DNA from: an uncultured Gemmatimonadaceae bacterium
GTDB taxonomy: Bacteria > Gemmatimonadota > Gemmatimonadetes > Gemmatimonadales > Gemmatimonadaceae
Assembly: GCA_963740355.1 (NCBI GenBank)
Contig: CAVUDW010000003.1
Location: 1,856,001-1,920,000, forward strand
Direction of reading: 5' to 3'
Length of the DNA: 64,000 nucleotides
The notes beneath the pieces are model-generated. The model was given only the letters and a program-made list of their open reading frames with translations, made no database searches and was not told where the DNA came from. Made by a program: the position numbers and the translations under genes. Shown one piece after another: positions 1 to 18,509 of this stretch; position 1 is the stretch's first letter; the number at the start of each line of letters is the position of its first letter.

Positions 1-166
1 GCCACCGCTGGAGCAACGTGGCCGCTGTGAGCCCGCGCCCCGGAATGGGGCGCAGCTCGGCGATAGGTTGGCCGTCCATCGTGACAGTGAGCGTCTCGCC
101 GCCGGCGACGCGCTGCAGGACTCGGCCACCGTTATTGCGGAGTTCTCGGACGGAGATGTTGTCCAT
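1..166 (-). CDS. Phd/YefM-family (prevent-host-death) antitoxin, 3' end runs off the window
   Basis: Not in the ORF track. Manual translation from ATG at 166 gives MDNISVRELRNNGGRVLQRVAGGETLTVTMDGQPIAELRP, the typical Phd/YefM N-terminus (isvrELrn...l.rv..Ge.l.vT..G.PiA.l.P). Confidence 0.85.
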   Translation of the reverse strand, partial: MDNISVRELRNNGGRVLQRVAGGETLTVTMDGQPIAELRPIPGRGLTAATLLQRW

Positions 167-171
167 TCCGG

Positions 172-200
172 ATTGTATCACGCGTGAGACGGCGAGGCAA
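172..200 (-). promoter_or_regulatory. sigma70-type promoter with overlapping palindromic operator for the Phd TA operon (probably leaderless mRNA)
   Basis: Minus strand reads TTGCCT-17 bp-TACAAT, 5 nt before the ATG. Near-palindrome GTCTCACGCGTGATAC at 175-190 overlaps the spacer and -10. Confidence 0.7.
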
Positions 201-231
201 GCGTGGTTGTTTTTCGGCCGGTCTCCAGCCC

Positions 232-445
232 GATCTCAAAACGGGTATACCGACACAGCTCCCAGAGCGTGTGCCCGTGGAATGTGAAGTTCACGACCGA
301 GCTGCGTGAGCCGGCGTTTGCGCCGTGCGACCTCGTCGCCGAGCGCGCGTCGCGCGACGACTCGCGAGCGCTGGCGCGCGAGATCCTGATGATGGAGCCG
401 GTCGACTAAGCGAATACGTTCAAGGGTAGCGCCATCACGCTCGCA
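232..445 (+). pseudogene. queG: queG 3' fragment copy 1, preceded by conserved 26-bp junction motif (232-257)
   Basis: Translates QSVCPWNVKFTTELREPAFAP...SRALAREILMMEPVD*ANTFKGSAI, resembling the QueG C-terminus after the CDxCQxVCPWN Fe-S motif. Internal stop; no 5' part. Confidence 0.75.
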
Positions 446-535
446 GCAGGGATCGCGCGCGGCATCTTCCGCCAATTTCCATGCGGGCGGCGGCGAGTAT
501 GCGCGCCAGCGACTGGAGGATGCGAACGCGGGAGT

Positions 536-2725
536 CTACTTCCAGCGATATCGGAGGGCCACGTTCGCCATGAACCCTTCCAGCGGCGCCCAGACGTCGG
601 TCGTCCACCGGCCACCCATGCCCCTCGTACGTCGTACCAAGGAGTCAGTATCCGTCTGCCGCACGTTGAGCAGGTTCTCGAAATTGGCCACCAGCTCGAC
701 GGGTCCAAACTGCTTCGCCGCGATGGCCATCATGTACACGTAGGGCTTCGACGTGGTGCGGAAGGGATTGTCATCGAGAGGCTGTGCGCCAAACCACGTG
801 CCTTCAATGCCCATGCGATAGACACCGGGGCGCTCGAGCATCAGATCACCGCCCACGCGATGACGCGGCAGCAGCGGCATCGCTTCGCGCGTCCCCGTGA
901 ATGCATCGGGCCGACTGCCCCGGGAGTAGCCGTAGTTCGCGATGAACTTTCCGCCGGAGAAGCGCCAGACCGCGAGCGTTTCGATGCCGCCGACGCGCGT
1001 GCGCGCTGGGGCATTCTGTAGCAACGTCTCCCCTGCCGTCCCCACCCCGTCAGTCAGTTGCACGGCATCGGCGATGCTCGAGCCATACACGGTGAGCAGG
1101 ACTTCAGCCCGGAGCAGCGTGCCGTTGATGTCCAGCATCGCGCCGAGACTGCGTTCGGGATCGAGCGGTTGCGTCACGCGGACACCACGTAGCCCAGTCG
1201 CCTCCGTCTCTTCAGTCCGTCCAGTCAGTGCCGCGTACCCGTTGCCAACACTGCCGCGCACGGTCCATCCCTCCACTGGACGCGCGAGCAGCGCCACGCG
1301 CTCCGTGAGCTGCAGCCCCGCGTCGGGATGTGCGTCGGCGCGAACACTCGCGGAGACCGTCACGGGGCCGACGCCGCGTTCTGCCGTCACGAAGGCACCG
1401 GGAATGACCCAGCGATGATCGAACGTCGCGTTCAGTACGTTTTTGTAGTTGTCGAGCTGCACGACGCTGCCCAGCACGACTGCGCGCCGCTCCGCATCGA
1501 AGGCGCGCGTGACCTCGAGGAACCCTGTCGTGGTCTCGTCGTCCTCGCGTGCGCCCGGGCCGAACGCCCGCGCCCTCGCGCTGCCTGCAACGGCGAACCG
1601 CATCGACAGGCTGCCGCCCTTCATCGGAAGACGTGCTGTTCCGCCGATGTCGGCGCGCGTGCTGCGAAGCGCTTCGCGAAACGGCGTCCCATCCGGTGCG
1701 TTCGCCCCGCCGACGGTGCCGCCGACCCGATCATCGTATCCGACGCCCACCGTGAGGAACAGCGACCTCCCACGCGAGTCAACCGCGTGCAGTCGTGGAC
1801 GCAGGCTCCACCGCGACGCGCGCGATTGGTCCGCCCAGCCGTCGTCGTCGATGTCCTGCGCCGCCTGCGTCGTGCCGGCTGCAAGCAGCGACACACCAAC
1901 GCCCCTGCCGAAGCGATGACTGAGCCACGTCGCGCCGTCGGTCACGCCCAGCGTGCGGCGATTGAGCAGCAGCTCGTTCTGCCCGGTGGGTGGCTTCGAC
2001 ACCATGTTGATCACGCCACCCAACGCCTGTCCGCCGTACAGCGCCGACGCGGCGCCCTTGATGATCTCGACGCGCTGCAGATCGACCGGCGAGATGTCGA
2101 GCGGGCCCAACGCGCTCGCGCTGGCGCCATAGAGCGGCAACCCATCGGCGAGCATGACGGTGTACTGGCCCGGCAGTCCGAGAATACGCACGCTTCCCGT
2201 GCCCAGTCCGGGCGCTGCCGCCTGCACACGCAGCCCTGGCGTTTCGTTGAGCAGCATGCTGATGCCGCTGGGAGACATCAGCGTCTTCTCGTCGACTTCC
2301 ATCTCGTCGACGACTTCGACGCGGATCGGCGATGCACCGGCCAGACGTTCGATGCGCGTCGCGCTCACGCGCACCTCCGGCATTTGCATGGCCATCTCGC
2401 CCATTGCCGTGTTGCTCATGGTCGCGGTCACGATGACGGTGACTAGGCTATCGCGAACCACTCGCGTGGTGAGGCGGATGGGGGCGAAACCGATGCGCGT
2501 GACGGTGATGAGATGGCTTCCGACTGGCAGCACGAGCCGTGCAACGCCAGCGCTATCGCTCACGGCGCTCCGCCCGACCGACTGCACGAGAAAGCCCGCG
2601 ATCATTCCCATGGATTCCTGCACGGTGACGTGGACGCGTCCACTGTCGGCTTGCTGGCCGGAGAGCGGCGTGGCGCCAACGAGCAACGCGACAATGGCGA
2701 GCAGAGCGAGCAGTCGGTGCGTCAT
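536..2725 (-). CDS. TonB-dependent outer membrane receptor
   Basis: Signal peptide, carboxypeptidase-regulatory-like N-domain, plug motif RVEIIKGAASALYGGQALGGVIN, C-terminal ENLLN and LRYRWK. Confidence 0.9.
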   Translation of the reverse strand: MTHRLLALLAIVALLVGATPLSGQQADSGRVHVTVQESMGMIAGFLVQSVGRSAVSDSAGVARLVLPVGSHLITVTRIGFAPIRLTTRVVRDSLVTVIVTATMSNTAMGEMAMQMPEVRVSATRIERLAGASPIRVEVVDEMEVDEKTLMSPSGISMLLNETPGLRVQAAAPGLGTGSVRILGLPGQYTVMLADGLPLYGASASALGPLDISPVDLQRVEIIKGAASALYGGQALGGVINMVSKPPTGQNELLLNRRTLGVTDGATWLSHRFGRGVGVSLLAAGTTQAAQDIDDDGWADQSRASRWSLRPRLHAVDSRGRSLFLTVGVGYDDRVGGTVGGANAPDGTPFREALRSTRADIGGTARLPMKGGSLSMRFAVAGSARARAFGPGAREDDETTTGFLEVTRAFDAERRAVVLGSVVQLDNYKNVLNATFDHRWVIPGAFVTAERGVGPVTVSASVRADAHPDAGLQLTERVALLARPVEGWTVRGSVGNGYAALTGRTEETEATGLRGVRVTQPLDPERSLGAMLDINGTLLRAEVLLTVYGSSIADAVQLTDGVGTAGETLLQNAPARTRVGGIETLAVWRFSGGKFIANYGYSRGSRPDAFTGTREAMPLLPRHRVGGDLMLERPGVYRMGIEGTWFGAQPLDDNPFRTTSKPYVYMMAIAAKQFGPVELVANFENLLNVRQTDTDSLVRRTRGMGGRWTTDVWAPLEGFMANVALRYRWK

Positions 2726-2781: not shown

Positions 2782-2881
2782 GTGTCGCAGAATCTTTCAC
2801 GGACTCGCCGTTCCGGGCGCGATCGTTTTTGGACGGGAAAGACGCGCTGACGCTGGCGATGCCGCGGTGGTGCTGGAGAAC
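2782..2881 (+). pseudogene. queG: queG 3' fragment copy 2 (internally deleted)
   Basis: Encodes DSPFRARSFLDGKDALTLA, then jumps directly to AAVVLEN. Aligns with the copies at 4395 and 10192. Confidence 0.65.
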
Positions 2882-3157
2882 TCGAGCAGGGAGCGCCCGG
2901 CGGCGCGCATGGTCTGGCGTTCTGGGTTCAGAATCGAGGAACGATCATGGACCCTGACCGCATGGCTTCGACGGGCATGCTGCCGGACTACCCGTCAACC
3001 ATGGACCCGGGCAATACCGTCGCAAGTGACTAGGAATGTCCTATTCGTCGTGTTCGCCATGCGGCGAATTCCGTATGGGCGCAGCACCTAGGCTGGCGGC
3101 GTCATACGAAAGAATCGCTAGCTTTCGTCGCATGACGCTTCCACACGCCAGCGCCCA

Positions 3158-4096
3158 ATGAGCGCCGGCCTCCTCGCACTCGTCGACGATCTCACCGCCC
3201 TCGCCAAGCTCGTCGCATCCTCCGTGGACGATGCCGCAGCGCAGGGCAGCAAAGCCATCGGCAAGGCCTCGGGCATCGTGATCGACGATGCCGCCGTGAC
3301 GCCACGTTACGTGATCGGATACGCGGCCGACCGTGAACTGCCGATCATCGCGAAGATCGCCAAGGGTTCGCTGGTCAACAAGCTGGTGATCCTGACGCCG
3401 GTCTGCCTGCTGCTGAACAGACTGGCGCCATGGCTGCTGACGCCGCTGCTCATGCTCGGCGGCCTCTATCTCGCCTTCGAAGGCTACGTGAAGGTGATGG
3501 AAATGGTACGAGGCAAGACGGTGACGACCGCTTCCGCAGCGGGTACGACGGCGGAGACTGGCGCCGCATCCGAAAAGGCGAAGGTCGCCGGCGCCGTGCG
3601 CACCGACTTCATCCTGTCGGCCGAGATCATGGCCATCACGCTCGCGACCGTGGCCACGGCGCCGTTCGTGACGCAGGTAGTCGTCCTGGTGCTCGTGGGC
3701 ATCGGCATGACTGTGCTGGTGTACGGCACCGTGGCGCTGATCGTGAAGGCCGACGACTTCGGCGCCTATCTCGCGCAGACGGGCAGTGGTGCCGCGCGCG
3801 CACTCGGTCGCGGTATCGTGGTCGGGATGCCGAAGCTGCTGGCCGCGCTCGGCTTCGTCGGCATGCTGGCGATGCTCTGGGTCGGTGGCGGCATCATCAC
3901 GCACGGCCTGCATGAACTCGGCGTGCATGGGCCGGAGGAGTTCGTGCAGCACCTCGGCGCGCTGGCAGGCGGCGCGGTGCCTGCGATGGCGGGTGCCGTG
4001 TCCTGGCTCGTGACGGCCGCAATCTCCGCCGTCATCGGTCTCGCGCTCGGCGCGATCGTCTCACCGATCGGACACAGGGTGCTGCCGGCGCACTGA
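3158..4096 (+). CDS. DUF808 family inner membrane protein (YedI-like)
   Basis: Motifs GLLALVDD, GIVIDDAAVTPRYV, RELPIIAKIAKGSLVNKL and GAVRTDFILSAEIM. Confidence 0.9.
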   Translation: MSAGLLALVDDLTALAKLVASSVDDAAAQGSKAIGKASGIVIDDAAVTPRYVIGYAADRELPIIAKIAKGSLVNKLVILTPVCLLLNRLAPWLLTPLLMLGGLYLAFEGYVKVMEMVRGKTVTTASAAGTTAETGAASEKAKVAGAVRTDFILSAEIMAITLATVATAPFVTQVVVLVLVGIGMTVLVYGTVALIVKADDFGAYLAQTGSGAARALGRGIVVGMPKLLAALGFVGMLAMLWVGGGIITHGLHELGVHGPEEFVQHLGALAGGAVPAMAGAVSWLVTAAISAVIGLALGAIVSPIGHRVLPAH

Positions 4097-4394: not shown

Positions 4395-4568
4395 CGGGCG
4401 CGGGAGTTCATCGCGGAGAAAGACTTGCGCACGCTGGCGCAGGACATCCTCGCGCCGGATCGGGAGCAGTTCAGCGCGGCGCTCCGGAAGTCACCGATGA
4501 AGCGGGCGATATTGGCTGGATTGCGGCGGAATGCGGCTTTGGTGGTCACCAACGATGCCGAACGGTGA
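4395..4568 (+). pseudogene. queG: queG 3' fragment copy 3
   Basis: RAREFIAEKDLRTLAQDILAPDREQFSAALRKSPMKRAILAGLRRNAALVVTNDAER* matches the QueG motif F..SPMKRAK..GL.RNAAVVLGN. Confidence 0.8.
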
Positions 4569-4905
4569 CGTTCGTCAGGCGCGACCCATTCTCGTGGCCT
4601 GAAGTCATTGCGCCAGTGATGGTTTCCGTGTGAGCGCGGCCGGACGAGACGTCACCACCGGGCACGCGGGAATGCGTGCGTCAGACCGGCTGACACGGTT
4701 TCCACGACGCTCCGAGTCAAGTCGCAGACCCCACGCTACGTGGCCAACCGGTCGAGGCCGTCTTCGCCCGCGAGAGAATACGCCTCCATGACGCGGAGCA
4801 GGAACTTTGTACTGAAACTTCCGTACGTCATGCCACGCGTGACCCATCCGACAGGCAGCCTCTTTGTCACACTCGACGTCGTCTCCTCTCTCACCCGACA
4901 GCCCG

Positions 4906-6135
4906 ATGACCATCAGCATGCTCGTCCGGTCTTTGATCGCCGCGGCGTTATTCGCACTGCCCGCCGTTGCTCAATCGTCGAGAGCACGTTCGGACGGGCG
5001 AGTGGAAATTTCGATCAACTCGACTGTGCTCGGTGCGAGTCGACGCGTCATTCTCGCGCCACCATACGGCGGAACGAGTACCGAGGCGCATGCGGTGCTG
5101 CTGCTGCTCGACGCGGATGACGAGCCGCAGTTCAACGCCGCTGTCGCGAACATCCGCTTCCTCGAGGATCGTGGAGCGATCCCGCGGCTGCTCGTTGTGG
5201 GTATTCCGAATGGTGCGACGCGCAATCGAGACCTTGCCCCCGCAGCAACCATGCAGACAAATGTCGCAGATCCGGCATTACGCGAGGGCCCGGAACGTTT
5301 CGCTCGCTTCCTCGAGTCGGAGGCGCTGCCCGCAGTACGCGCGAGGTTTCGTACCCTTCCGTACACGGTCATTGCCGGACACTCGCTTGGCGCGCTCTTC
5401 GTATTGCAGCTGATCGCGAACCGACCCGGACCCTACGCAGCGGCGATTGCGATGAGTCCGTCGCTGTGGTGGAGCAATGGCGCGCTCGGTGCGCCGTTCG
5501 CCGATGCCATCAAGCGTCTGCGATCGCCGTTTCGCTTATTTGTGTCGAGTGGTGCGTTCGAGCCGCGCATAGACAAGCCGACGCAGCAGTTCATCGCGAC
5601 ATTGGAATCCAACCCACCATTGGGTTCGCTCGACTTTCGGTCGCGACACTACCTGGACGACTCTCACGCTCTCACACCGCTCGTGAGCCTGACTGACGGG
5701 CTACGCTTCATCTTCGAACCGATCGGCTTGGCCGTCAGCGCGATGAACAAGCTTGACGGCGAGTCCGATTCCACGAGCATCGTCACGGCATTCTCCGGCG
5801 TGACGAAGCGCTACTCGGCCGGCGCAAGGGCAATCGGCCTGGATACGTTGCTCCCGGAGTCCTTCGCCCTCCAATCGGGCGCGTCCGTGCTGCGGAATAT
5901 GCAGAAGCCTGGCGCCGCGCGTGTCATTCTCAACTGGGCCGTGCAGGCCTATCCTCAGTCTGCCGCCGCCCACGAAACGTTCGCCGACGCGCTGGTAGCC
6001 GCTGGTGACACTTTGCTGGCCCACACGGAATACGCGCGAGCGATCGTGCTCGCGAGTGCTGCCGGCGATTCGTCGGTCAGTGGCATTCGCGCCAAGCAGC
6101 GCGCCATCAAGCAACCGGTTCCACCGCCCCGCTGA
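4906..6135 (+). CDS. Secreted alpha/beta-hydrolase, putative esterase (IroE/Fes-like) with TPR-like C-terminus
   Basis: Signal peptide, LVVGIPN, RNRDLAP, nucleophile motif GHSLGA, and SPSLWW. Confidence 0.85.
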   Translation: MTISMLVRSLIAAALFALPAVAQSSRARSDGRVEISINSTVLGASRRVILAPPYGGTSTEAHAVLLLLDADDEPQFNAAVANIRFLEDRGAIPRLLVVGIPNGATRNRDLAPAATMQTNVADPALREGPERFARFLESEALPAVRARFRTLPYTVIAGHSLGALFVLQLIANRPGPYAAAIAMSPSLWWSNGALGAPFADAIKRLRSPFRLFVSSGAFEPRIDKPTQQFIATLESNPPLGSLDFRSRHYLDDSHALTPLVSLTDGLRFIFEPIGLAVSAMNKLDGESDSTSIVTAFSGVTKRYSAGARAIGLDTLLPESFALQSGASVLRNMQKPGAARVILNWAVQAYPQSAAAHETFADALVAAGDTLLAHTEYARAIVLASAAGDSSVSGIRAKQRAIKQPVPPPR

Positions 6136-6428
6136 TTCGCGACACGATTCGTCGCAGGCAGCAGCAGCCAGTCCCCTGGAACGCGCACATCAGAAGAACG
6201 CGCACATGTCCAGCGCGACGCCGTAGTCGCCGCGCATTGCAGCACCCCAGAAGCCGAGCGAGGTGCGCCCGTATGCGCATCGATGCGGTTTCGTGGCGCG
6301 AAAGGGGAGTGCGCCGTGATCCCTCGAAACTTTGGCGCCCCGTAGCCACGCACGCACGTCGGCCTACGGCTCGCAACGACCCACTCGTCCCGTGCGGCGT
6401 CCGTGTCGCCCCTTCGCGGTGACACCGA

Positions 6429-6980
6429 TTGCCGCGCGCACCTACGTTCGGCGCATCCCCAACCCCGAACAGGAGCGCATCATCATGCCCACTGCTATGG
6501 ATCGTCACCATCGTCGCGCGTGCGAGGCTCTCGGCGGTGTCCGGTGCCGCGCTGGCCGCCACCCTGCTGGCAGCTGGGACGGCGCGAGCGCAGTCGACAC
6601 GGTCACTGGCCGTTACGCGCCCCGCGCAGGCCGCTGCAGATACGACCATTCTTTCGAGCGGCCCTGACCTGCAGGGGCTCTGGGACTTCGCAATGCGCGT
6701 AGGCGACCGACCGTCCACCGGCTTCTTCGCGCTCGGCCCCGTCGAACGGGGATGGGCTGGCTCGCTCACGCCATACCTCACGAACACGCTGGCGATCCGC
6801 CTGCTCACCGTGGACGGGGACTCGGTGCGGATGGTCGTTGCGTCGCGGGAGGGCGATGTGCGATTTCATGGGCGGCTGACCGACAACGGACGCACGATGG
6901 AAGGCATCGTGGACTATCACGGCGGCGTGCGCGTTCCGATGACGGCCACGCGCCGCGCCCAGCCTGTCGCGCCACGCTGA
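6429..6980 (+). CDS. Hypothetical secreted protein (start uncertain)
   Basis: Signal-like segment AALAATLLAAGTARAQ, beta-rich body, directly upstream of the LytS/LytTR pair. The best RBS+ATG (6485) is out of frame. Confidence 0.6.
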   Translation: MPRAPTFGASPTPNRSASSCPLLWIVTIVARARLSAVSGAALAATLLAAGTARAQSTRSLAVTRPAQAAADTTILSSGPDLQGLWDFAMRVGDRPSTGFFALGPVERGWAGSLTPYLTNTLAIRLLTVDGDSVRMVVASREGDVRFHGRLTDNGRTMEGIVDYHGGVRVPMTATRRAQPVAPR

Positions 6981-6990
6981 GCCCAGCCGC

Positions 6991-8199
6991 ATGAGCGGAA
7001 TGGCCGTCCCCAATGCCCTTGATCGCACCGAGTCCCTCCCCGGATACTCAAAGGTGACGACACGCGCGCAAGAACTGGGGGATGTCGGCTCTTCGGAGTC
7101 GGCCACGGAGCGGCGTATCGTCCCGGTGGGGGCCGTCGTGCTGACGACGTTCTTTGCCCTGCTCTACGGGCTGCGCGGCAGCATCGCGGCCCTCGACCGT
7201 GGCGAGGATCCGCGCTGGGCGCAGCAGGTCGGCTGGTCACTCGCCATGTGGTGGACCTGCCTGCCACTGCTACCGCCGCTGGCGTCCCTCGTCCACCGGT
7301 TCCCGGTGGGACGCCCGCATCCGTGGAGGAACGCCGGCATCCTGCTGCTCGGCACGGCGACGGCCGCCTGGCTCCGGCACGTTGTGATGACCCCGGTCGT
7401 GGTGGCGATCACCGGTGTCCCCGACGTAGCGGCGAGCGCTGCCGCGCGGACTCTCACGTACTTCACCGTCTTCCTCGTGATGGTCGCGCTCCTCCACGCC
7501 TCTCACTACTACCGCGCGGAACGAGCCCGTGCAGTGCGCGAGGCAGCCCTTGCCCGAGGGCTCGCCGAGGCGCGGCTCGCCGCGCTGCGGACGCAACTGC
7601 ATCCGCACTTCGTCTTCAACGTGCTCAATGCGGTCACGACCCTCCTGCACGCCGACCCGATGGCGGCCGACCGAATGCTGACCCGCTTCGCGGCTCTATT
7701 GCGCGAGATACTGCACGAGGGGGCAGAAGAGCACGCGCTCGAGCGCGAGCTCGAGTTGTTGGCGCGCTACGTCGAACTGATGCAACTGCGTTTCGGTGAC
7801 CGCATCGTCGTGGAATGGGCCGTGGCCGATGCACCACTCGGCGCACGCGTGCCCTTTCTGGTCTTGCAGCCGCTGGTCGAGAACGCCTACGAACACGGGC
7901 TTGGCGGACGGGAAACGGGCGGACGCGTGCAGATCAGCGCGACACGCGCGGGCGACAGGCTTGAACTCGTCGTCGAGGACGATGGCGCGGGTCTCAGCGC
8001 TGAGGCAGGGTCGATCATCGGTCGAGGGAATGCGGAAACGGGTACTGGTATCGGCCTGCGCAACACGCGCGATCGCCTCGTGCAGCTCTACGGCGCGCAC
8101 GCCTCACTCGTGCTGGAGCGACCGTCGGATGGCGGTACGCGCGCGCGGGTGACGCTGCCGTTGATCGATGGACCGCACAGAAACGGGGCGCATCCATGA
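6991..8199 (+). CDS. LytS/YehU-type sensor histidine kinase
   Basis: TM segments, H-box LRTQLHPHFVFNVLN, LQPLVENA, VEDDGAG, GIGLRN. Confidence 0.92.
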   Translation: MSGMAVPNALDRTESLPGYSKVTTRAQELGDVGSSESATERRIVPVGAVVLTTFFALLYGLRGSIAALDRGEDPRWAQQVGWSLAMWWTCLPLLPPLASLVHRFPVGRPHPWRNAGILLLGTATAAWLRHVVMTPVVVAITGVPDVAASAAARTLTYFTVFLVMVALLHASHYYRAERARAVREAALARGLAEARLAALRTQLHPHFVFNVLNAVTTLLHADPMAADRMLTRFAALLREILHEGAEEHALERELELLARYVELMQLRFGDRIVVEWAVADAPLGARVPFLVLQPLVENAYEHGLGGRETGGRVQISATRAGDRLELVVEDDGAGLSAEAGSIIGRGNAETGTGIGLRNTRDRLVQLYGAHASLVLERPSDGGTRARVTLPLIDGPHRNGAHP

Positions 8200-9113
8200 A
8201 CGAACCGACGCGCGATCGGCGCGCGAGTCTTGCCGCCGAAAATCGAGGTTCCTGGAAGGTGCTGATTGCCGATGACGAGCCCCTCGCGCGCGCGCGCCTG
8301 CGTGCGCTGCTTGCGCGACATCCCGAGTTCGAGCTCACGGCGGAATGCGGAAGCGGCGCGGCGGTTCTCGCTGCGCTCCGCAACGGCCCCGCCGATGTGC
8401 TGCTCCTGGACATCCGCATGCCCGGCCTCGATGGCATCGCGACGGTGGAGGCTCTTGCCCAGGAAGCGCCATGGTCGGTGGAGCGGCCCCCATGCGTCGT
8501 CTTCGTCACGGCGAGCGAGGAGCACGCGATCCGTGCATTCGATCTGGATGCGGTCGACTACCTCGTGAAGCCGGTCGACATCGATCGCTTCGATCGGGCG
8601 ATGCGGCGACTGCTCGAGACGCTCGGGTCACCGTCCCACGCCCCCGATGCCGCAGCCATCGCGGCGGCCGATGCGGCGCTTCGGGGCGCGCTGCAGGCCC
8701 TGCATGGCGACGCGCCCGCGCCAGCCAGCGGCATCGCCGGGGGCTCCGCCTCCCACGCACGAACTGGGGCCGTATCGGAGGACAGGTATGCGAAGCGATT
8801 CGTGATCCGCGACGCGCGAGGGATGCATTTCGTGGCCGTCGCGGACGTCGACCGTGTCGAGGCGGAGGGCAACTACGTGGCGGTCTTCGCCGCGGGGCGA
8901 CGGCATCTCGTGCGTGAGTCGCTCAATGCCATCGCATCGCGGCTCGACCCGGCGGAGTTTGTGCGGGTGCATCGGTCGCATGTCGTACGGATCGACCGGA
9001 TTCGCCGCCTGGAACCCTGTGGCCATGGCGAGTACGACCTCACGCTGGGAGACGGCACCCGACTGACCTCGAGCCGGAGCTATCGGGAGCAAGTACGGCG
9101 ACTGCTCCGCTGA
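8196..9113 (+). CDS. LytTR family response regulator
   Basis: Receiver motifs IADDEPLAR, LLDIRMPGLDG, DYLVKP; LytTR motifs AEGNYV and FVRVHRSHVV. 4-bp overlap with the kinase. Confidence 0.93.
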   Translation: MNEPTRDRRASLAAENRGSWKVLIADDEPLARARLRALLARHPEFELTAECGSGAAVLAALRNGPADVLLLDIRMPGLDGIATVEALAQEAPWSVERPPCVVFVTASEEHAIRAFDLDAVDYLVKPVDIDRFDRAMRRLLETLGSPSHAPDAAAIAAADAALRGALQALHGDAPAPASGIAGGSASHARTGAVSEDRYAKRFVIRDARGMHFVAVADVDRVEAEGNYVAVFAAGRRHLVRESLNAIASRLDPAEFVRVHRSHVVRIDRIRRLEPCGHGEYDLTLGDGTRLTSSRSYREQVRRLLR

Positions 9114-9209
9114 CGGAAGCGCGAGCCATGCTGCGAAATGCCGTGGGCATCACACGATGACGCGGTCGTCAGAAGACACGCGGGACCCGTGTCGGGACGC
9201 GGCAGCCGC

Positions 9210-9308
9210 GAGCTCAGCGCGGCGTTCCGGGAGTCACCGATGAAGCGGGCGAAGTTGGCGGAGCTCAGGCGGAATGCGGAGGTCGTACTCACCAATGCCG
9301 AGGCATGA
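9210..9308 (+). pseudogene. queG: queG 3' fragment copy 4
   Basis: ELSAAFRESPMKRAKLAELRRNAEVVLTNAEA*. Clear nucleotide similarity to 4470-4555 and 10358-10400. Confidence 0.8.
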
Positions 9309-9383: not shown

Positions 9384-9779
9384 TCACAGCGACAAAGGAA
9401 CGAGTCGTGCGCGAATCCAGTCGGCCAGCAGCGCCTCCGTGACTTCTCCTCCCGCCAAGGCGACCATCATCTGCACCACATCCACCTCGGTCGCAGACAG
9501 CTCCTTCCCATTGAGTCCGAGGAAGGCCATCATCGTGACGAAAGCAGTGCGCTTGTTCCCATCGCTGAATGGATGCGCGCGCGCGAGTCCAAAGGCATAG
9601 GCTGCCGCCAGCGAGGCAAGGTCGGATGCCGGCTCGTAGGACCACTGCTGCCGTGCACGAGCAAGCGCGTCCTCGAGAGCGTTCTCGTCCCGGACGCCGG
9701 CGAGCCCTCCGTGCTCCCGCAGCTGATCGAGATGGATGGAATCCACGACGATACGCGGCACCCAGCGGGGCTCTCGCAT
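9384..9779 (-). CDS. doc: Doc/Fic family (death-on-curing) toxin
   Basis: HGGLAGVRDENALEDALAR and Fic/Doc motif HPFSDGNKRT. Confidence 0.92.
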   Translation of the reverse strand: MREPRWVPRIVVDSIHLDQLREHGGLAGVRDENALEDALARARQQWSYEPASDLASLAAAYAFGLARAHPFSDGNKRTAFVTMMAFLGLNGKELSATEVDVVQMMVALAGGEVTEALLADWIRARLVPLSL

Positions 9780-9788
9780 GACGCCGGT

Positions 9789-10016
9789 CTACTTGGCCAG
9801 CTCGCGCAACGCGTTGCGGTATTTCTTCGCCGCATGGGCCGCGACCGCGAGTCCAGCCTCGACGTCGGGATCGAACGGTGTCAGGAGAATCCCCTGTGCA
9901 GTCTCGATGGCGAGTACGCGGTCGCCCGCCTCGAGGTGGAGGCGGTCGGCCATATCCTTCGGGATGGTCGCACCAATCGACCCGCCCACCTGGCGCAGTG
10001 TCAGTTCACGGACCAT
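9789..10016 (-). CDS. AbrB/MazE/SpoVT-family antitoxin
   Basis: LRQVGGSIGATIPKDM swapped-hairpin N-terminus and C-terminal KYRNALRELAK. Immediately upstream of doc. Confidence 0.9.
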   Translation of the reverse strand: MVRELTLRQVGGSIGATIPKDMADRLHLEAGDRVLAIETAQGILLTPFDPDVEAGLAVAAHAAKKYRNALRELAK

Positions 10017-10093: not shown

Positions 10094-10191
10094 GCACGCC
10101 CTGCCGGCAGCGTGAGAACGCAGAGAGTGAGGCAATCATCACACCGCGACGGCGTCCGCCGACGGACGGTCCGGGCTCCTACGTTGAGCGG

Positions 10192-10420
10192 GATCTCAAA
10201 ACGGTTATGCCGACACATCGCCCAGGCCGTCTGCCCGTGGAGCATGAAGTGCTCGCAGGAACTGGCGTAGGACTTCACGTTCCGGGAGCGGGCGTTCATC
10301 GCAGGGAAGGATGTCGAGACGCTGGCGTCAGACATCGTGGCGCTGGACCAGAACGTGTTCAGCGCGGCCTTCCGGAAGTCGCCGATGAAGCGGGCGATGC
10401 TCGTTCGGTTGCAGCCCAGT
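10192..10420 (+). pseudogene. queG: queG 3' fragment copy 5, preceded by conserved 26-bp junction motif (10192-10217)
   Basis: QAVCPWSMKCSQELA*DFTFRERAFIAGKDVETLASDIVALDQNVFSAAFRKSPMKRAML with an internal stop. Motif is 24/26 identical to 232-257. Confidence 0.8.
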
Positions 10421-10565
10421 GTCACGCGCCGGCTGTACCCTCGCCACAGCTCCGTGCGACGTCATGGACAGCGCGCGTCACCTGATGAGCCGGTTTGCGC
10501 AGCATTCGGGTTCTGGACGAGTGGAGGTACTGATCGCCGGTACCGAACCCGATCAGGAGAACCGC

Positions 10566-11243
10566 GTGCGTCTGACATCTGCCATCACTGGAATCCTGGT
10601 AATCAGTGTGATCGTCACCGATGGCGCAAAGGGGCAGTCGTCGGGCGTGCATTGCGAGCGTCGGGCACCGCTGGTTGCCACCACCGACACGTCACCAGTG
10701 ACAGATGCATCGCGTTTCACAATGGACTCGATGGCGCGGTCGTGCCCGGACCCGGCGCGTTTGTCACACATTGACCCCATGCCCCCCAGCCGACTCCGGG
10801 TGCTCAGCGGAATCGGTGCCGCCGCGGCCGTCGCGCAGGCCATTGACTCGCCGGAGCAGTGGCCGCGGACCACCGTGGGCCTGTTACAGCGTCTCGCGGA
10901 TCGGTCGGGCGCCGTGGCGATTCAGGCACTCACGTACCACGCCGTCAGCCAGCGCCTTGGGTGGGTGCCGGACCAGGTCTCGTGTCCGACGGGCGCACTG
11001 GCACGCGCGCAGTGCGCGATTGCCAGTACGCTGGTCGTGCGAAACGCCCACGGCGCACCCCGCCCCGATGTCGCACGGCTCGCCGGGCTCACACTTGGCT
11101 CGGCTGCCTCGCTGCTCTGGCGCCCTGAGCGTCGCTCGGGCGGTGACGCCGCGCTGTTCGTCCTGACGCGCGTTGGGAGCGGACTCGCCTTCACCGCCCT
11201 GCGCCACGCGGTCGCCCGCCGACGGCCCTCCGGCCAGCACTGA
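10566..11243 (+). CDS. Hypothetical exported/membrane protein
   Basis: RBS (CAGGAG) before GTG at 10566, hydrophobic N-terminus, coding-like composition. Confidence 0.6.
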   Translation: MRLTSAITGILVISVIVTDGAKGQSSGVHCERRAPLVATTDTSPVTDASRFTMDSMARSCPDPARLSHIDPMPPSRLRVLSGIGAAAAVAQAIDSPEQWPRTTVGLLQRLADRSGAVAIQALTYHAVSQRLGWVPDQVSCPTGALARAQCAIASTLVVRNAHGAPRPDVARLAGLTLGSAASLLWRPERRSGGDAALFVLTRVGSGLAFTALRHAVARRRPSGQH

Positions 11244-11388
11244 TCCGCCGTTGTCGTTCCACACGTCCGACCGCTGGGCGGAACCAGCGAGCCCCATGAA
11301 CCCCAGGCCAATCCGTACGCTCCGGTGCCGCGATCCACGTCGAACGTCCGTGCATGTTTTTCGCCCATCACCCTCTGCCCGAACGACG

Positions 11389-11838
11389 ATGCGACATCCC
11401 TACCTCTCGGCGCTGGCCGTCACGCTCCTCGTGCTCGGCTGTCGCGCGGATTCACCGCCGACGGCGCCCGACGCGGTGCCACTCGATCCCGCTGGCAGCA
11501 TGACGATCGGCCCCGGAGTGTCCGGGCGCTGGGTGCGTACCGGCTACGCCGTCACCGGTACGGCCACGCTGACCATCGACGGGACCACGGCCCGGCTCGA
11601 TCTGTCGAGTGATTTCAGCATCGGACAGGCCCCCGGCCCCACGCTGTACCTCAACACGCAAAGCAATCCGAACGGAGGACAGCCGTTGCGCATCGGTGCG
11701 CTGCGCAGCCGCAGTGGCGCGCAGTCGTACTCGTTTCAGGTGCCAGCGGGCATACGCTACACACACATCATCATCTGGTGTGATCCGTTCAACGTGGCGA
11801 TGGCGGAAGTCGTGCTTCCGGCCAGCGGCGGGTCGTGA
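11389..11838 (+). CDS. DM13 domain lipoprotein
   Basis: Lipobox LVLGC; DM13-like DFSIGQAPGPTLYL, GAQSYSF and IIIWCDPFNV. Confidence 0.8.
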   Translation: MRHPYLSALAVTLLVLGCRADSPPTAPDAVPLDPAGSMTIGPGVSGRWVRTGYAVTGTATLTIDGTTARLDLSSDFSIGQAPGPTLYLNTQSNPNGGQPLRIGALRSRSGAQSYSFQVPAGIRYTHIIIWCDPFNVAMAEVVLPASGGS

Positions 11839-11925
11839 CGCCGTGGCGCAGCCAGTACGATTCCATTGATGTGTAGAAGGAGCACCGGCACGGGTGCATG
11901 CCTCGGCGATCTGCGCGAGTCCTCC

Positions 11926-14900
11926 TCAGGAGCCGCCGGAGCCTCGCTGCCCGGCGGCGGCCGCTGCAGCGAAGGGCACGCCGGTGACGCCCGGCCCCTC
12001 AAGCAGCGCGCGATACCATTCACGCGACTCACTGGACCGGCCGCTCCGATGCAGGCAGTCGGCCAGCGCGAGGCGCTCGGGATACTGGCTGAGAACGGGG
12101 TGCCGTGCGCGCAACGACGTCGGGAGGTCGAGCATCGCCTGCTGAAACGCGCCAAGCGCGCCGGCCACGTCGCCGCCGCGCAGCATGCGGTGGCCCGTCA
12201 GCGCGGCGAGCAATGGCGCTGCGACCCGCGAGGGTGTCGCTGATCGCGTCGCCAGCGCACGGAGGGCTCCGGCCAACCCGGTCGAATCGCTGATCCGGAT
12301 GCTCAGCATGCCGAGCAGATATTCCCGCACGTCGCGCTGCTCACGTCCCGTGAGCCCACTGCCCGCATCCACCGGGGTGACGCGGCGTGTCAGGAGTTCG
12401 TTGCGCAGCGAGCGAAGACTGTCGACGGCGATCGTGACGGATGGCGCCAGCGCGAAGAAGGCGCGATCGTCCACACCGCGTGCCGGATCGAGCCCCTCGG
12501 CGATTCGGAACCGCGACGAGGCCGCGACCCAGTTGCCGTCGGCGACATCCAGTGCCGCGAGGGCCCGCAGTCCTTCCGCCCGCGTGTCGGGGGTGGGAGC
12601 TGCCGCCATGGTGTTGGCGTAGGCACGCGCTGCTGAGCGATCGCGCAAGTCGTTCCCGATGCGCTGCAGACCGACGCGGGCGATAGCGGGGTCATCGCGC
12701 AGGTCGACCGGAAGCGTGTTCGCCGGCGCACCAGCGATGCGTCGGCGGTAGAGCGCCATGTACGCCGCACGGATGCCTGGCTGCTCACCGGCGCTGTTGG
12801 GACTGAAGTACATGCTGTACAGCGTGTCGAGCTGGCCGAGCCGATTGGCCTTGGCAGCGAGATCCATCAGGTACACCGTCACTTCGCGATTGCGCGGATC
12901 GAGCGCCATGACCGACTGGAATGCCTTGCCCGCATCCTGAATCGACCGGCCGCGATAGGGATTGCTGCCGAACTGCGTTTCGCCGAGCAGCATCCACGCC
13001 TCGACATCAGTCGGATAGTCGCGGACCATCTGCGCCAGCCGTCGCTCGGCAGCCGTCGGGCTACCGAAGCGCAGATCGTGATAGGCGCGGATCAACGCCT
13101 GCTGACGCGGCGGCAAGGTGCTCGCCAGATCGTATGCACGTTGGGCCGCCGATGAACTGAGGGATTCCACTTCGTTCCAGCGGGCGGCGCGGGCGAGGCG
13201 ATACCATGCCAACGCGAACTGCGAATCGGCCGCCACCGCTTGCTGAAAGTTCTCGACGGCTGCCGCCGGGCGCGCATCGCGAAGCTCGCGCTCGCCGTCG
13301 AGGAAGGCGCGCAATGCGCGCGATGACGATGTCGTCGCCGCGGCGATGCCGGCGACAGTATCAGCGGGCGCCAGCAGTGCGCTGGCGATGAGCTGGCGCA
13401 CGATCGCGTCGACGCCTCGCGCCAGGCTGGCCGTATCGTCCACGGCAGCGAAGGCGCGACCGATCTCACGGCCGTCGATACTGCGCAACGAGGCGCGGAA
13501 GCTGAGCATCCGGCCGCTCTTGACGAGACTCCCGACGACGTATCGATGGGCTTTCACGCGGACCGCAAGCGCACGCGCATCTGCGGAATCGAGCGTCGTG
13601 GCCCCATCGGTGCCCGCCGCGCCGATGATGGTGTTGGGATCGATGCCGCGGACGAGGCCCGTGCCATCGAACGCCGGCGTGAGCAGGTCGACCATCCCCT
13701 CACGCAGGTACGCGATGTCACTGCCGCCACGCGTCGAGAACGGAAGGATGGCGAGCGTCGGCAACGGCTCGTCGGTTCGCACGACTTCCACCGCTGGCGG
13801 CGACACGCCTGCGGCGGGCGTTCGCCGCGTCCACCACGCCGCACCAGCCAGCGCCGCCGCGACGGTGAGGGCAACGAGCGGCGTGCGAACACCACGCGTA
13901 CGGTGCGCCGACGTCGGGAGCGAGCGTGCTGCCTCGCTGTCAGGTGGCAGTTGGACGTCGCGCACGGGCACCGTGGTCCCTGGCATCGCCTGCAACGCCG
14001 CGAGGACGGCGGCGCCGTCGGCGGGCCGGTCATCGGGTGCGGCGCTCAGCATGCGCCGGATCACGGCTGCAAAGGCTGGCGTCGGAGTCGTTCCATCCAG
14101 GCGTGCGAGCGGCGGTAGCGGCCCGTCGATGATCGCGGCGGCGAGGGTCTCCGGGTCGGCCCCGGTGAACGGGCGCCGACCGGTCACCATCTCGAAGAAC
14201 GTGACCCCGAGCGCCCACACGTCGGCGCGCGCACTGCGCGGGGCGCCACGCCAGAGCTCGGGGGCGAGGTATGGGAGTGTCCCGATCAGCCCCTGCCCGC
14301 TCAGCGATGCCGCCTCGTGTTCATGCACGGCGACACCAAAATCGAGCAGACGCGCAACATCACCCTCACCGAAGCCGACATTCGCCGGCTTGATGTCACC
14401 ATGCACGATCCCGGCGTGGTGTGCGCTGGCAAGGCCACGTGCGAGATGATTCGCGATCGTCATCACGTCATCGAGTGTCAGCAGGCCACTGCGCAAGCGA
14501 TCGCGCAGCGTGCCACCGGCGCAGAAGGCCATCACGATGCAGAGTGCACCGTCGGCCGTCGATTCGATCGCGTAAATGGCGCAGACGTGCGGGTCATCGA
14601 GTCGCGACGCCGCCTGCGCTTCGCGGACGAGCCGTGCGCGAGCCACCGCATCGCCGCTCACTGATGGCGCGAGCACCTTGATCGCCACGTCGCGTTCGAG
14701 GAGTGTGTCGCGCCCCCGATAGACGATGCCCGCACCGCCGCTGCCGATCCGCTCGTGCACGACGAAGTGCCGGATGCGGTCCCCGGGCGCGACGACGTCG
14801 GTGCGCGGCGCATCGTGGTCCGGAGACTGCGTGTCGCGCAGGTCATCATGTGCCAGCGCGGGCTGGATGATGTCCGCATGCAGTTCGTCGAGAAATGCTG

Positions 14901-15072
14901 TCGCGCCGTCATGCGCGGCGACCAACGATTCGAGCTCGGCGCGGAACGCTGCGTCGGACCCGTACGTCGTCGCGAGGTACGAGGCGCGCTGCGACGTCGG
15001 CAACGAGATGACGAGCTCGAACGCGCTGCTCAACCGCTCCCAGCTCGCGCGAGCCTCTGGCGGTTCAACCAT
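11926..15072 (-). CDS. Hanks-type Ser/Thr protein kinase with TM segment, TolB_N-like and TPR domains
   Basis: IGSGGAGIVY, VAIKVL, HGDIKPAN, LLDFG, GTLPYLAPE, DVWALG; TM near aa 400; helical repeats. Overlaps the ECF sigma stop. Confidence 0.92.
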   Translation of the reverse strand: MVEPPEARASWERLSSAFELVISLPTSQRASYLATTYGSDAAFRAELESLVAAHDGATAFLDELHADIIQPALAHDDLRDTQSPDHDAPRTDVVAPGDRIRHFVVHERIGSGGAGIVYRGRDTLLERDVAIKVLAPSVSGDAVARARLVREAQAASRLDDPHVCAIYAIESTADGALCIVMAFCAGGTLRDRLRSGLLTLDDVMTIANHLARGLASAHHAGIVHGDIKPANVGFGEGDVARLLDFGVAVHEHEAASLSGQGLIGTLPYLAPELWRGAPRSARADVWALGVTFFEMVTGRRPFTGADPETLAAAIIDGPLPPLARLDGTTPTPAFAAVIRRMLSAAPDDRPADGAAVLAALQAMPGTTVPVRDVQLPPDSEAARSLPTSAHRTRGVRTPLVALTVAAALAGAAWWTRRTPAAGVSPPAVEVVRTDEPLPTLAILPFSTRGGSDIAYLREGMVDLLTPAFDGTGLVRGIDPNTIIGAAGTDGATTLDSADARALAVRVKAHRYVVGSLVKSGRMLSFRASLRSIDGREIGRAFAAVDDTASLARGVDAIVRQLIASALLAPADTVAGIAAATTSSSRALRAFLDGERELRDARPAAAVENFQQAVAADSQFALAWYRLARAARWNEVESLSSSAAQRAYDLASTLPPRQQALIRAYHDLRFGSPTAAERRLAQMVRDYPTDVEAWMLLGETQFGSNPYRGRSIQDAGKAFQSVMALDPRNREVTVYLMDLAAKANRLGQLDTLYSMYFSPNSAGEQPGIRAAYMALYRRRIAGAPANTLPVDLRDDPAIARVGLQRIGNDLRDRSAARAYANTMAAAPTPDTRAEGLRALAALDVADGNWVAASSRFRIAEGLDPARGVDDRAFFALAPSVTIAVDSLRSLRNELLTRRVTPVDAGSGLTGREQRDVREYLLGMLSIRISDSTGLAGALRALATRSATPSRVAAPLLAALTGHRMLRGGDVAGALGAFQQAMLDLPTSLRARHPVLSQYPERLALADCLHRSGRSSESREWYRALLEGPGVTGVPFAAAAAAGQRGSGGS

Positions 15073-15670
15073 GGTTCGTGGTGTCGGCGTCACGCAGCGC
15101 ACGATGCAACCAGGCCTGTGCGACGGCCCAGTCGCGCTTCACGGTCGCCTCAGAGATCTCGAGCGCGAGCGCGGTCTCGGGGATGGACAATCCCCCGAAG
15201 TAGCGGCACTCCACCACGCGACAGGGCCGCGGATGCAACTGCTCGAGACGTAGCAGCGCCGCATCGAGCGCCGCAACGCGATCGACCAGATCATCCGGCA
15301 CGACACCGAGTTTCTCGGCCAGCGCACCATCAAAGGTGTCGACGACCGCGGAGCCGCCACGCTTGAGTGCCTGTGCGTCACGGGCATAGTTGCTGACGAT
15401 CTGCCGGGTGGCCCGCACTGCGACGGCGAAGAAGTGACCACGGTTCTGAACCGAAAGCGAGCCGGCGCCCGCCAGCCGCAGGTAGACTTCGTGCACGAGC
15501 GCGGTCGTTTCGAGCGTGTGATCACCACGGGCGGCATTCCGCCGACGGAGCCGTCGCGCGATCAGCCGCAGTTCATCGTAGACGCGCGCGAACAGCTGGT
15601 CGCCGGCCTTCGTGTCACCATCGCCCCACGCCCGGATCAATCCGGTGACGGAGTCATCGACCTCGGACAC
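15065..15670 (-). CDS. ECF sigma-70 factor (kinase-associated, TIGR02999-like)
   Basis: VTGLIRAWGDGD, LFARVYDELRLIA, HTLETTALVHEVYLRL, KRGG, VVECRYFGGLS, TVKRDWAVAQAWL. Confidence 0.92.
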   Translation of the reverse strand: MSEVDDSVTGLIRAWGDGDTKAGDQLFARVYDELRLIARRLRRRNAARGDHTLETTALVHEVYLRLAGAGSLSVQNRGHFFAVAVRATRQIVSNYARDAQALKRGGSAVVDTFDGALAEKLGVVPDDLVDRVAALDAALLRLEQLHPRPCRVVECRYFGGLSIPETALALEISEATVKRDWAVAQAWLHRALRDADTTNHG

Positions 15671-15849
15671 CCGAACCTCGCACTGGTGGAAAGCGCTGCG
15701 AGCCGGGGCGTTCCGCCACGGGTCCGGAACTGTGGTGCTCCAGATTTCCGACAGACAGCGTTGCTCGACACAATCTATCGAGCGGCATCCAGGTGGCGAA
15801 TCGGTGATGGGTACCGATAGTGACCTGACGAGAGCGATGCACGCGACAC

Positions 15850-15933
15850 CGCGGACACGATCGCCCTCCAGCACCAGGTGTTGGCGCTGCAGGGCGATGG
15901 TGTCCGCGACGTCGCGTCGCTGCGACGTCGCGG
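15850..15933. repeat. Two abutting inverted repeats (27-bp arms, 24/27 matches; 12-bp perfect arms)
   Basis: 15850-15876 pairs with 15882-15908. CCGCGACGTCGC-N6-GCGACGTCGCGG at 15904-15933. Confidence 0.75.
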
Positions 15934-15984
15934 GGCGCCGAACGTGTAGCGTTCCCGTGTCAAGTGGTTCGGTAACGCGGCGAG

Positions 15985-16779
15985 TCAGGCAGACATGCGC
16001 TTCCGTCGCGCGATGACGCCGAGCATCAGCAAGCCCGAACCGAAGAGCACGTAGGTCGCAGGCTCAGGCACGACGGACGACGCGGTGAAATCGATGCGAT
16101 ACACCGCATCGGTGGCGGCCAGACCACTCGAGAAGACGTAGCCAGCGGCCGTCATCTGGCCGTCAAAGCCCATCAGTTCCGCGAAGTTGAACGAGACGAC
16201 GCCGTTCTGCGGCGTGCGGACGTCGTTCATGCCGTTGACCAGGAACGCCGCGCCCCCGACGCTGAAGGTTTCAGACCCAGCGTCCCAGATCTGACCGGCC
16301 GTCTGCGTGATGCTGCTGATCAGCAGATTTCCCGCGTCATCGAAGAGGCGGTATTGCTGCGGATTGTCGTTGCCGATGAAGAAGTCGTTGCTGGGGATGA
16401 CCATCGACGCGAACGAGAAGAACCGGTTCATCCCCGCATTGACGATGAAGCTCTGGCTGCGCGACTGTCCCGGCGTGAGGGCCCCGCCGATCGTGCCGCG
16501 GTTCGCCGTCGGATCCGCGGCGGCAAAGTCGGCTTGCCACTGGCCACCAGCACCGCCTTCAGCGACTGACACGATGCCGGGGCCGCCCGGGTTGCCGATA
16601 TTGAAGGCGTCGAACGCGCCATTGTGGAAGCCGAGGTGCAGTGGCGCGAAGCTGATGCTGTTCGGCTTCGCGAGGTTGGTGATCGTGACCGTCACCATCC
16701 GTTGCTGCGCCTGAATGGCGGATGCAGCGATCGTCAGTACAGTCGTGGCGCGAAACAGTGTCGACATGCAGCGGTTCAT
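15985..16779 (-). CDS. Spondin_N-like domain protein with PEP-CTERM sorting signal
   Basis: Signal peptide, FAPLHLGFH, VAEGG, SMVIPSNDFFIG, WDAGSE; C-terminal VVPEPATYVLFGSGLLMLGVIARRKR. Confidence 0.9.
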   Translation of the reverse strand: MNRCMSTLFRATTVLTIAASAIQAQQRMVTVTITNLAKPNSISFAPLHLGFHNGAFDAFNIGNPGGPGIVSVAEGGAGGQWQADFAAADPTANRGTIGGALTPGQSRSQSFIVNAGMNRFFSFASMVIPSNDFFIGNDNPQQYRLFDDAGNLLISSITQTAGQIWDAGSETFSVGGAAFLVNGMNDVRTPQNGVVSFNFAELMGFDGQMTAAGYVFSSGLAATDAVYRIDFTASSVVPEPATYVLFGSGLLMLGVIARRKRMSA

Positions 16780-17727: not shown

Positions 17728-17866
17728 CCGACTGGAGATGCAGCCCGGTGAAACCAACGGCGTCGCGTGGGCTCACGGAGACGATTCGCGTGTGAGCGGC
17801 GGTCAGCAGCGGGAGTCGTCGTCACTCGAATTCCGGATACGCACGAGACGCCGTAGCTTGTAATGC

Positions 17867-18388: not shown

Positions 18389-18509
18389 TGGCCAGAACAC
18401 GCACGTCCGAAGCGCTCGGCCTGTTCGGCTCGCATGCAGGCGGCACCGGTGGCACTCGAACCCTTGCACGAATCGCCCGCAGATCGCAACACCGACCGTG
18501 CGGGTCGAA

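Follow-up and report, generated by a model that had tools for sequence, protein, structure and literature searches.

A 26-base motif that occurs twice near the start of the window, the whole 64,000-nucleotide stretch analysed here (G000:C3:1856001-1920000), is very probably the P half, that is the left, element-side half, of the attP of a large serine recombinase (LSR) element that targets queG, and the two window copies are very probably attR-type scars of that element. Together with three truncated queG relics, the motifs mark four to five integrase-less cassettes stacked behind the intact queG of this Gemmatimonadaceae genome (G000).

Motif copies and the cassette array in the window

A pattern search placed the motif at 232-257 (copy A) and 10192-10217 (copy B), both on the plus strand, and at up to three mismatches found no further copy in the 5.45-Mb assembly; the chance expectation for the window, taken from 100 dinucleotide shuffles, is none. 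The two copies agree at 24 of 26 bases and the 26 bases behind them at 18 of 26, so the earlier note was right to call the motif better conserved than the DNA that follows it. In both copies the motif leads in frame into Q.VCPW and queG C-terminal sequence. The intact queG of the same genome (C3:1851036-1852037, same strand, 4 kb upstream of the window; TIGR00276, 291 bits) reads YGCDICQSVCPWNVKF, has YGCDICQ at the place of the junction and lacks the motif, which agrees with the further claim that both copies are fused at the same codon position, with the YGCD codons replaced. The note needs one correction here, in that similarity to queG goes on for about 30 nt to the left of the motif as a diverged stretch with the blocks CCnGTC and GAGCGG. 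From its sequence, the intact gene reads as an unoccupied attB (B-B'), a vacant target. A second, weak TIGR00276-like match (G000:C2:2024945-2025262; 47.7 bits, below the cut-off) is an unrelated Fe-S protein and not a second queG.

Gene calling and Pfam gave the local gene order, and queG comparisons gave the relic coordinates (Table 1). Upstream of motif A are the intact queG, a PIN toxin with its antitoxin, a Ser/Thr kinase-TPR gene, and VapC with Phd. From motif A onwards, relic A is followed by a TonB receptor, a queG relic, a DUF808 gene and another relic, then by an esterase, a histidine kinase, a LytTR regulator, a further relic, Doc with its antitoxin, motif B and relic B; the three relics between A and B are 5'-truncated and motif-less. 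Cassette cargo in G000 comprises toxin-antitoxin pairs, the TonB receptor, the DUF808 protein and a two-component system. Pfam and recombinase searches detected no integrase of any kind in the array stretch of the window, the window contains no tRNA or tmRNA target, and window positions 1-19000 contain no Rfam family at the gathering score.

Ser/Thr kinases with TPR or WD40 tails are recurrent cargo (window 11926-15874, L005:7253-9484, and the arrays of G010, G083 and G132), sometimes paired with a PF07638 ECF sigma factor, and one window kinase has at least 12 paralogous stretches in the G010 array contigs alone. Two window ORFs supported by GC3 (6429-6980 and 10419-11243; 183 and 274 aa) match no Pfam or NCBIfam family. 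At the end of the G010 array, homologues of window genes 18510-20199 (90-96% amino acid identity) begin no more than about 220 bp behind the last queG fragment, and the 8-kb segment that stands behind relic B in G000 is not there. Because the G010 array end meets these homologues almost directly, the 8 kb 3' of relic B may be a further insertion without a surviving repeat; queG-fragment searches found no distal repeat behind this segment in G000.

Table 1. Features of the array at the start of the window, in window coordinates unless a locus is given.
Feature	Position	Strand	Basis and remarks
Phd-family antitoxin gene, 5' part	2..181	-	ORF L005:9918-10181(-), PF02604; TIGR01552 weak; last gene of cassette ending at site A
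VapC/PIN partner of Phd antitoxin	L005:9508-9921, just upstream of window	-	PF01850
Putative P half-site A (attP element-side half in attR-type scar), includes motif copy A	229..262	+	Conserved columns; mirror of P' arm
Predicted central crossover dinucleotide CA, site A	263..264	+	Centre of P/P' inverted repeat
Putative B' half-site and displaced queG 3' relic A, encodes SVCPWNVKFTTELREP..., TAA end	265..409	+	queG comparison
Cargo: TonB-dependent receptor	536..2725	-	PF07715, PF00593
Degenerate queG 3' relic without P half-site, heads DUF808 cassette	2799..3012	+	79-85% identical to fragment and tail heading G083 DUF808 cassette
Cargo: DUF808 protein	3158..4096	+	PF05661; cassette also in G083, other array position
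queG 3' relic, residues ~255-307, 5'-truncated, without P half-site	4395..4553	+	queG comparison
Cargo: esterase, unknown ORF, histidine kinase, LytTR response regulator	4864..9113	+	Pfam
queG 3' relic, residues ~278-311, 5'-truncated	9198..9308	+	queG comparison
Cargo: Doc toxin 9384-9779, MazE/AbrB-type antitoxin 9789-10016	9384..10016	-	PF02661, PF04014; TIGR01550, TIGR02609; last module before site B
Putative P half-site B, includes motif copy B	10189..10222	+	Conserved columns
Predicted central crossover dinucleotide CA, site B	10223..10224	+	Centre of P/P' symmetry
Putative B' half-site and queG 3' relic B, in-frame TAG 10268-10270	10225..10470	+	Final queG fragment of G000
Candidate further inserted segment: unknown ORF, Ser/Thr kinase-TPR, ECF sigma, PEP-CTERM protein, TfoX	10471..18450		Absent at G010 array end

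The queG repeat across the family, its sites and a linked recombinase

The motif was searched at up to three mismatches in 201 genomes of the same family, with the reversed pattern as a control. It is present in eight of them, with 30 copies in total (control, 0), and a queG 3' fragment lies directly behind it in 30 of 30 copies. The earlier note had taken the motif for the element-side arm of an attR-type junction at queG and proposed a genome scan for queG 3' sequence behind it; these 30 copies in eight genomes sustain that reading, none of them standing without a queG fragment, and the motif is absent from the left halves of all 12 intact queG genes examined, where it might have been an in-frame part of the gene. 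The other four genomes of the genus are all positive (15 copies in G010, five in G132, four in G083 and one in G171). Downstream of one intact queG, the motif copies follow one another on the same strand at intervals of about 1-10 kb. Searches by tblastn with the G000 QueG found one full-length or near-full-length queG in five of five genus genomes (that of G171 is cut by the contig end) and, over the 10-60 kb downstream, between four and more than 20 same-strand queG 3' fragments. Most fragments begin at residue ~228-236 and end near 308-311, and some are 5'-truncated. In DNA comparisons, most copies begin to match the intact gene at one common base directly behind the motif and match it over about 220 bp; the repeats are 70-88% identical over this length and all in direct orientation.

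In a profile of 38 units, the columns of the motif and P half-site are 80-99% conserved, and weaker blocks (TGAGnGTT, CCnGTC and GAGCGG) extend up to ~30 nt left of the motif. These blocks are in frame and are read as a putative diverged copy of queG codons. They lie ~33-60 nt left of the site centre (window ~203-231 and 10163-10191), beyond the usual serine-integrase half-site, and may be an ancestral queG remnant or a site for an accessory protein.

The DUF808 cassettes of G000 and G083 share 93% nucleotide identity over 1157 bp, compared with 81% for the queG 3' region, and occupy different array positions in the two genomes; a kinase cassette common to G010 and G083 shows 91% identity. Cassettes appear to move between species. 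An attempt to map the crossover from shared cassettes failed, since their identity of 80-93% falls in the range found between any two repeat units. The sequence left of site A (window 100-231, the Phd-VapC promoter region) recurs in six of the 38 units, from five genomes, and that left of site B (window 10120-10191) is found in three units (G000, G083 and G132); this recurrence points to a few lineages of cassette ends. About ten of the 38 units (e.g., L026, L021, L028, L006 and L012) have a hairpin ~25-60 nt upstream of the motif, of the form TAAC.C-loop-G.GTTA, with compensatory changes (TAACCC/GGGTTA, TAACTC/GAGTT, AATCCG/CGGTT) and a GTTGATTTTC-like loop, and five loci carrying it gave no Rfam match at E<=1. 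The hairpin was rejected as a general part of the site, being found in only ~10 of 38 units, and marks one lineage of cassette ends. One cassette of G061 (L050:9262-14675, from attR1 to attR2) encodes an ArsR-type regulator, a SAM methyltransferase, an SBF/ACR3-type transporter, a metallophosphoesterase and a flavin oxidoreductase, and looks like an arsenic-resistance set.

Pfam analysis of the 97 ORFs of the G132 and G083 arrays identified one recombinase, a 721-aa protein with PF07508, whose gene in G132 lies immediately downstream of the intact queG, convergent with it and overlapping its 3' end. A homologue in G061 (49.6% identity over 714 aa) has the same position, and the LSR gene overlaps the 3' end of an intact queG at nine of nine informative family loci and at three of three loci in a second family of the class, a count that leaves out L063 (cut by the contig end) and L064 and L066 (30-35% identical, no queG nearby). 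PF07508 scores above the cut-off in both the G061 and G132 proteins; PF00239 reaches 33.3 bits in G061 (cut-off 23.3), and the N-terminal Resolvase match of G132 is sub-threshold at 22.9 bits. The motifs YTRKS and CAHCG are invariant in seven LSR homologues. A model of moderate quality built on the alignment of these seven (mean pLDDT 64.7; zinc-ribbon region below 50) has an N-terminal a/b domain, a long helix, a middle domain and an antiparallel helix pair (405-507), and the top 16 Foldseek matches to it are all large serine integrases (SPbeta-type, phiC31, Bxb1 and LI), with E values down to 3.5e-13. The model shows the domain order of serine integrases, in which a resolvase-type catalytic N-terminal domain carrying the serine motif is joined by a recombinase domain and by a zinc ribbon with an inserted coiled-coil. 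A sequence search against the PDB returned nothing at E<=0.01, and the sole NCBIfam resemblance is to XisF, at 28 bits compared with a cut-off of 375.

A cognate LSR was found in only two of the eight motif-bearing genomes (G132 and G061), in addition to a remnant in G010, where residues 430-620 lie in a cassette right behind a queG fragment. PF07508 matches of G112 and G158 were rejected as cognate, since they are on other contigs and have no match to the queG-linked LSR. No LSR trace was found in G000; with the cognate LSR missing, its sites are inactive today, nothing in this genome can be shown to be active, and the LSR reading of its motifs rests on relatives. G073 carries the LSR and attL, and no attR fragment was found there. 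LSR elements bounded by attL and a P-B' site are 23.3 kb long in G061, ~27 kb in G039 and ~35 kb in G132. The G061 element encodes a Rep_1 protein, an AAA ATPase, a small resolvase, a DNA methylase and a 2107-aa NTPase, and Pfam detected no phage structural genes in it.

At LSR-bearing loci, the intact queG is native in its left half. In the nine family loci the right half changes from CCGTGGAACG... (CPWNVKF) to CCGTATAACC... (CPYN-H/R-KF), and all 12 loci have a P'-like right half where the native type would stand. The nine family loci share CCrTAyAACC there, while the three second-family loci differ in outer bases (e.g., CCATTTCCGCG). The P' arm is an inverted repeat of the motif. When the arms are mirrored around a central CA, P (attR1) and P' (attL) of G061 agree at 21 of 22 inner positions; the consensus sequences of P (n=38) and P' (n=10) agree at 20 of 22, and the arms of G039, G164 and G107 at 17-18 of 22. 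The P and P' arms together give an attP-type inverted repeat around a central non-palindromic dinucleotide, CA. A census of unique sites yielded 35 P-B', nine B-P', three B-B' and one P-P', with four unclassified. Judged by sequence, these four classes are the attR, attL, attB and attP of a serine-integrase system, site classes that are described in passages of PMC3783163. The same passages place the outer (ZD) motif 5 bp nearer the centre in attB than in attP; an ACGG block does shift by 5, but in an offset scan of consensus P against consensus B, +5 gave 5/13 and was tied with -3.

The place of the exchange can be narrowed from both sides. All fragments have TCC, compared with TGC or TGT in intact genes, two bases before CAG, which puts the exchange to the right of that base. 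The first base that tells P' from B' is 15 nt right of CA, and attL and attR1 of G061 and G039 are identical for 14 nt right of CA. These two differences bound the exchange to ~16 bp (window ~262-278 at site A), within which CA is singled out as the centre of P/P' symmetry, and we infer that strand exchange takes place at this CA, in the Gln codon, at both window sites (Table 1). The centre is thus six to seven bases further 3' than the crossover near GAC/AC that had been proposed earlier.

The LSR frame runs antisense through the element-supplied queG tail (L034:2619-2621 in G132; L049:5567-8035 in G061). In G132, the TGA stop of the LSR is made up of the central CA and the last base of the host-side half; since the stop spans the site centre, the C-terminus of the protein would differ between the integrated and excised states. 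The G061 frame has no stop at the site and is open to 822 aa. This antisense frame is probably incidental to high G+C. G132 also has a partial tandem duplication of the LSR N-terminus (L034:4751-5323; ~160 aa, 80% identity to the start of the full gene).

Growth of the array and competing explanations

LSR elements of this family very probably integrate between YGCDIC and Q, within the stretch of queG that encodes its second Fe-S motif. The inserting element would bring its own queG 3' end, so that the gene stays intact and attL has the form B-P', and the displaced old 3' end would remain behind the element, headed by the P half-site, as an attR of the form P-B'. Repeated LSR integration would then build up the array, with the part that bears the integrase being lost or leaving afterwards. 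If elements simply integrated in tandem, P-P' sites would be expected inside the array, whereas P-B' was observed at 35 of 37 classifiable P-sites, and an extra step is therefore needed. P-P' sites are rare, with one in the census and one more in G410. Internal sites of P-P' type are seen at L071 (G164), L074 (G107) and L083 (G410), the last beside an LSR C-terminal remnant, and suggest that integration beside an already occupied site sometimes happens.

Two routes, both relying on known reactions alone, could restore attB. By the first, attL would be excised with any one of several downstream attR sites, and the LSR element would either carry distal cassettes off or leave them in place while restoring attB. 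By the second, B'-type sequence would take the place of the P' arm once the element had integrated, and decay of the integrase-proximal part would follow. The unit G010_C77 has an element-type queG tail (QELSLATFAARP, as in the G132 attL) followed by the LSR remnant 430-620, and its right half-site is B'-type. With an element tail and an LSR remnant joined to a B' half-site, this unit is a direct witness for the second route.

A rival reading is an integron-like arrangement, in which the P-B' sites would be the working sites of integrase-less cassettes that an LSR acting in trans inserts into queG, each insertion regenerating B-B' in the manner of attI x attC. The sites are P-B' in 35 of 48 cases, and the first site is B-B' in the LSR-free genomes G000, G010 and G171; the cassettes are small (~1-5 kb), and one genome holds up to 15 motif copies and more than 20 fragments. 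Cassettes are common to species at an identity above that of queG and at other positions (DUF808, 93% compared with 81%; kinase, 91%), and in the consensus strings B' retains 10 of 15 outer P' positions. However, passages of PMC3783163 report serine integrases to pair only attP with attB, or attL with attR in the company of a directionality factor, canonical reactions with alternative attR sites can give the same array, and one cassette, in G010, is plainly a decayed full element. We regard working P-B' sites as unlikely. That queG is the docking point of an integron-like LSR cassette platform, where a visiting LSR inserts, collects and drops P-B' cassettes in trans with the target regenerated each time, is possible, though doubtful. 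The ~220-bp queG repeats might likewise serve homologous recombination, for instance following natural transformation, which would build or reshuffle the array and leave the motif as a passive passenger of one ancient integration. The 70-88% identity and uniformly direct orientation of the repeats, a TfoX-family gene nearby and the mosaic look of the arrays, in which the two halves of G010_C36a 6.2-8.8 kb match different genomes, are all consistent with this. Yet it would not account for a non-coding P half-site conserved at 80-99% per column in 38 units while the flank further left is unconserved, for queG-derived DNA that drops to ~60-90% beyond ~40 bases, for the same start base of the units, or for LSR-bounded elements with a mirrored P'. 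As the origin of the array such recombination is improbable; as a secondary contributor beside LSR integration it may well, and probably does, play a part through the same 220-bp repeats.

The suggestion in the earlier note that the motif is an Xer-type half-site, or that of some other tyrosine recombinase, as in IMEX or dif modules, drew on a resemblance between the XerC arm and the TTATGC string of copy B, and the genomes do keep three to four housekeeping-type tyrosine recombinases. That string proved to be a minority variant: TATGCC is found in just two of 30 copies, and the rest have TATAC. In dif, arms of ~11 bp flank a central region of 6-8 bp, whereas here arms of 22 bp surround a 2-bp centre. 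No PF00589 gene lies in or near the arrays; in five genomes these genes are hundreds of kb away or on other contigs, and Pfam found none among 137 array and element ORFs (19 + 97 + 21, the 97 being the scanned share, all from the G132 and G083 arrays, of 227 called ORFs that also take in the G010 and G171 contigs). With the site tied to an LSR gene in 12 of 12 loci, a tyrosine-recombinase site is very improbable, and of the earlier interpretation as a whole the element-side arm of attR stands, while the Xer link and the place of the crossover do not. A reading of the motif as mere queG coding sequence in decay, without a part in recombination, is scarcely credible. Over the 55 nt to the left of the junction the frame is still queG-like, as (F/V)R.P..SG.I...Y, but random decay would yield neither the same sequence in 38 copies from eight or more genera nor an inverted copy at the other side of the element, and motif conservation and mirror symmetry contradict such an origin.

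Read as the P half of an LSR attP, the isolated repeat becomes part of a complete, testable recombination system in a little-studied phylum, and queG is identified as an integration hot spot. Twelve natural pairings of a divergent LSR with predicted attL and attR sites are now at hand, from which attP and attB can be read together with a predicted CA crossover, and serine integrases with defined sites are wanted tools for the insertion of large DNA. The same reading explains a variable region of 10-60 kb as stacked cassettes with addiction modules, Ser/Thr kinases, an arsenic-resistance set, and denitrification-related and sugar-use genes. That internal sites are nearly all P-B', while the first site is again a clean target, could teach how arrays remain receptive to further insertions. 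If the integron-like platform were true, the host would accumulate exchangeable toxin-antitoxin, kinase, transport and resistance modules.

Comparison with known systems

In a literature search, no paper turned up that connects queG with an integrase or attB; the published catalogues of LSRs, with their supplements, lie outside that search and may list such sites. Phage and ICE serine integrases (A118/LI, phiC31, Bxb1 and SPbeta) share the domain order of the queG-linked LSR and are its structural matches, although the LSR has no detectable sequence match to solved integrases. Passages of PMC3783163 describe attP as an imperfect inverted repeat of ~45-50 bp around a central dinucleotide, with the integrase gene at the element edge by attP. 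The predicted queG attP is likewise an inverted repeat around CA, with the LSR gene at the element edge beside the site. In contrast to those systems, the P' arm here doubles as QueG coding sequence (CPYN-H/R-KF), and the G061 element looks plasmid-like or defence-like and not phage-like.

Integrons (IntI, attI, attC) resemble the queG arrays in having a one-directional array of small, promoter-independent cassettes, rich in toxin-antitoxin genes, behind one fixed usable site. The queG arrays differ in that they have no IntI or other tyrosine recombinase in or near them, that their repeat of ~260 bp is a gene-tail copy with an LSR half-site in place of attC, which folds as an imperfect hairpin, and that their cargo is found on both strands, in part as multi-gene units. 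For want of a tyrosine recombinase at the arrays, and with another site geometry, the queG system is neither an integron nor an Xer module. The fdxN element (XisF) is an LSR element sited inside the gene of an Fe-S protein, which it interrupts. The LSR resembles XisF at a score (28 bits) far below the cut-off of 375, queG is left uninterrupted with a replacement 3' end supplied by the element, and there is no evidence of developmental excision of the queG elements.

The closest known analogue, by its mode of working, is the composite SCC/SCCmec island at rlmH (orfX), with CcrAB or CcrC. In both systems an LSR element enters a conserved housekeeping gene at its 3' end but does not inactivate the gene, and a tandem stack builds up that includes recombinase-less (pseudo-SCC) units, each bounded by direct site repeats. 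The repeats of SCC are short (~15-20 bp), whereas the queG repeat includes ~220 bp of duplicated gene tail. A passage of PMC5397144 describes an SCC island with five recombination sites; queG arrays reach at least 15 units, and most array genomes have no recombinase. The queG system further differs in its phylum (Gemmatimonadota), in its LSR clade and in its target, the codons of the queG Fe-S motif. Membership of the SCC family is ruled out, given that the target is queG and not rlmH and that the LSR has no close named family. We conclude that the queG system is very probably a serine-integrase integrative element and its scars.
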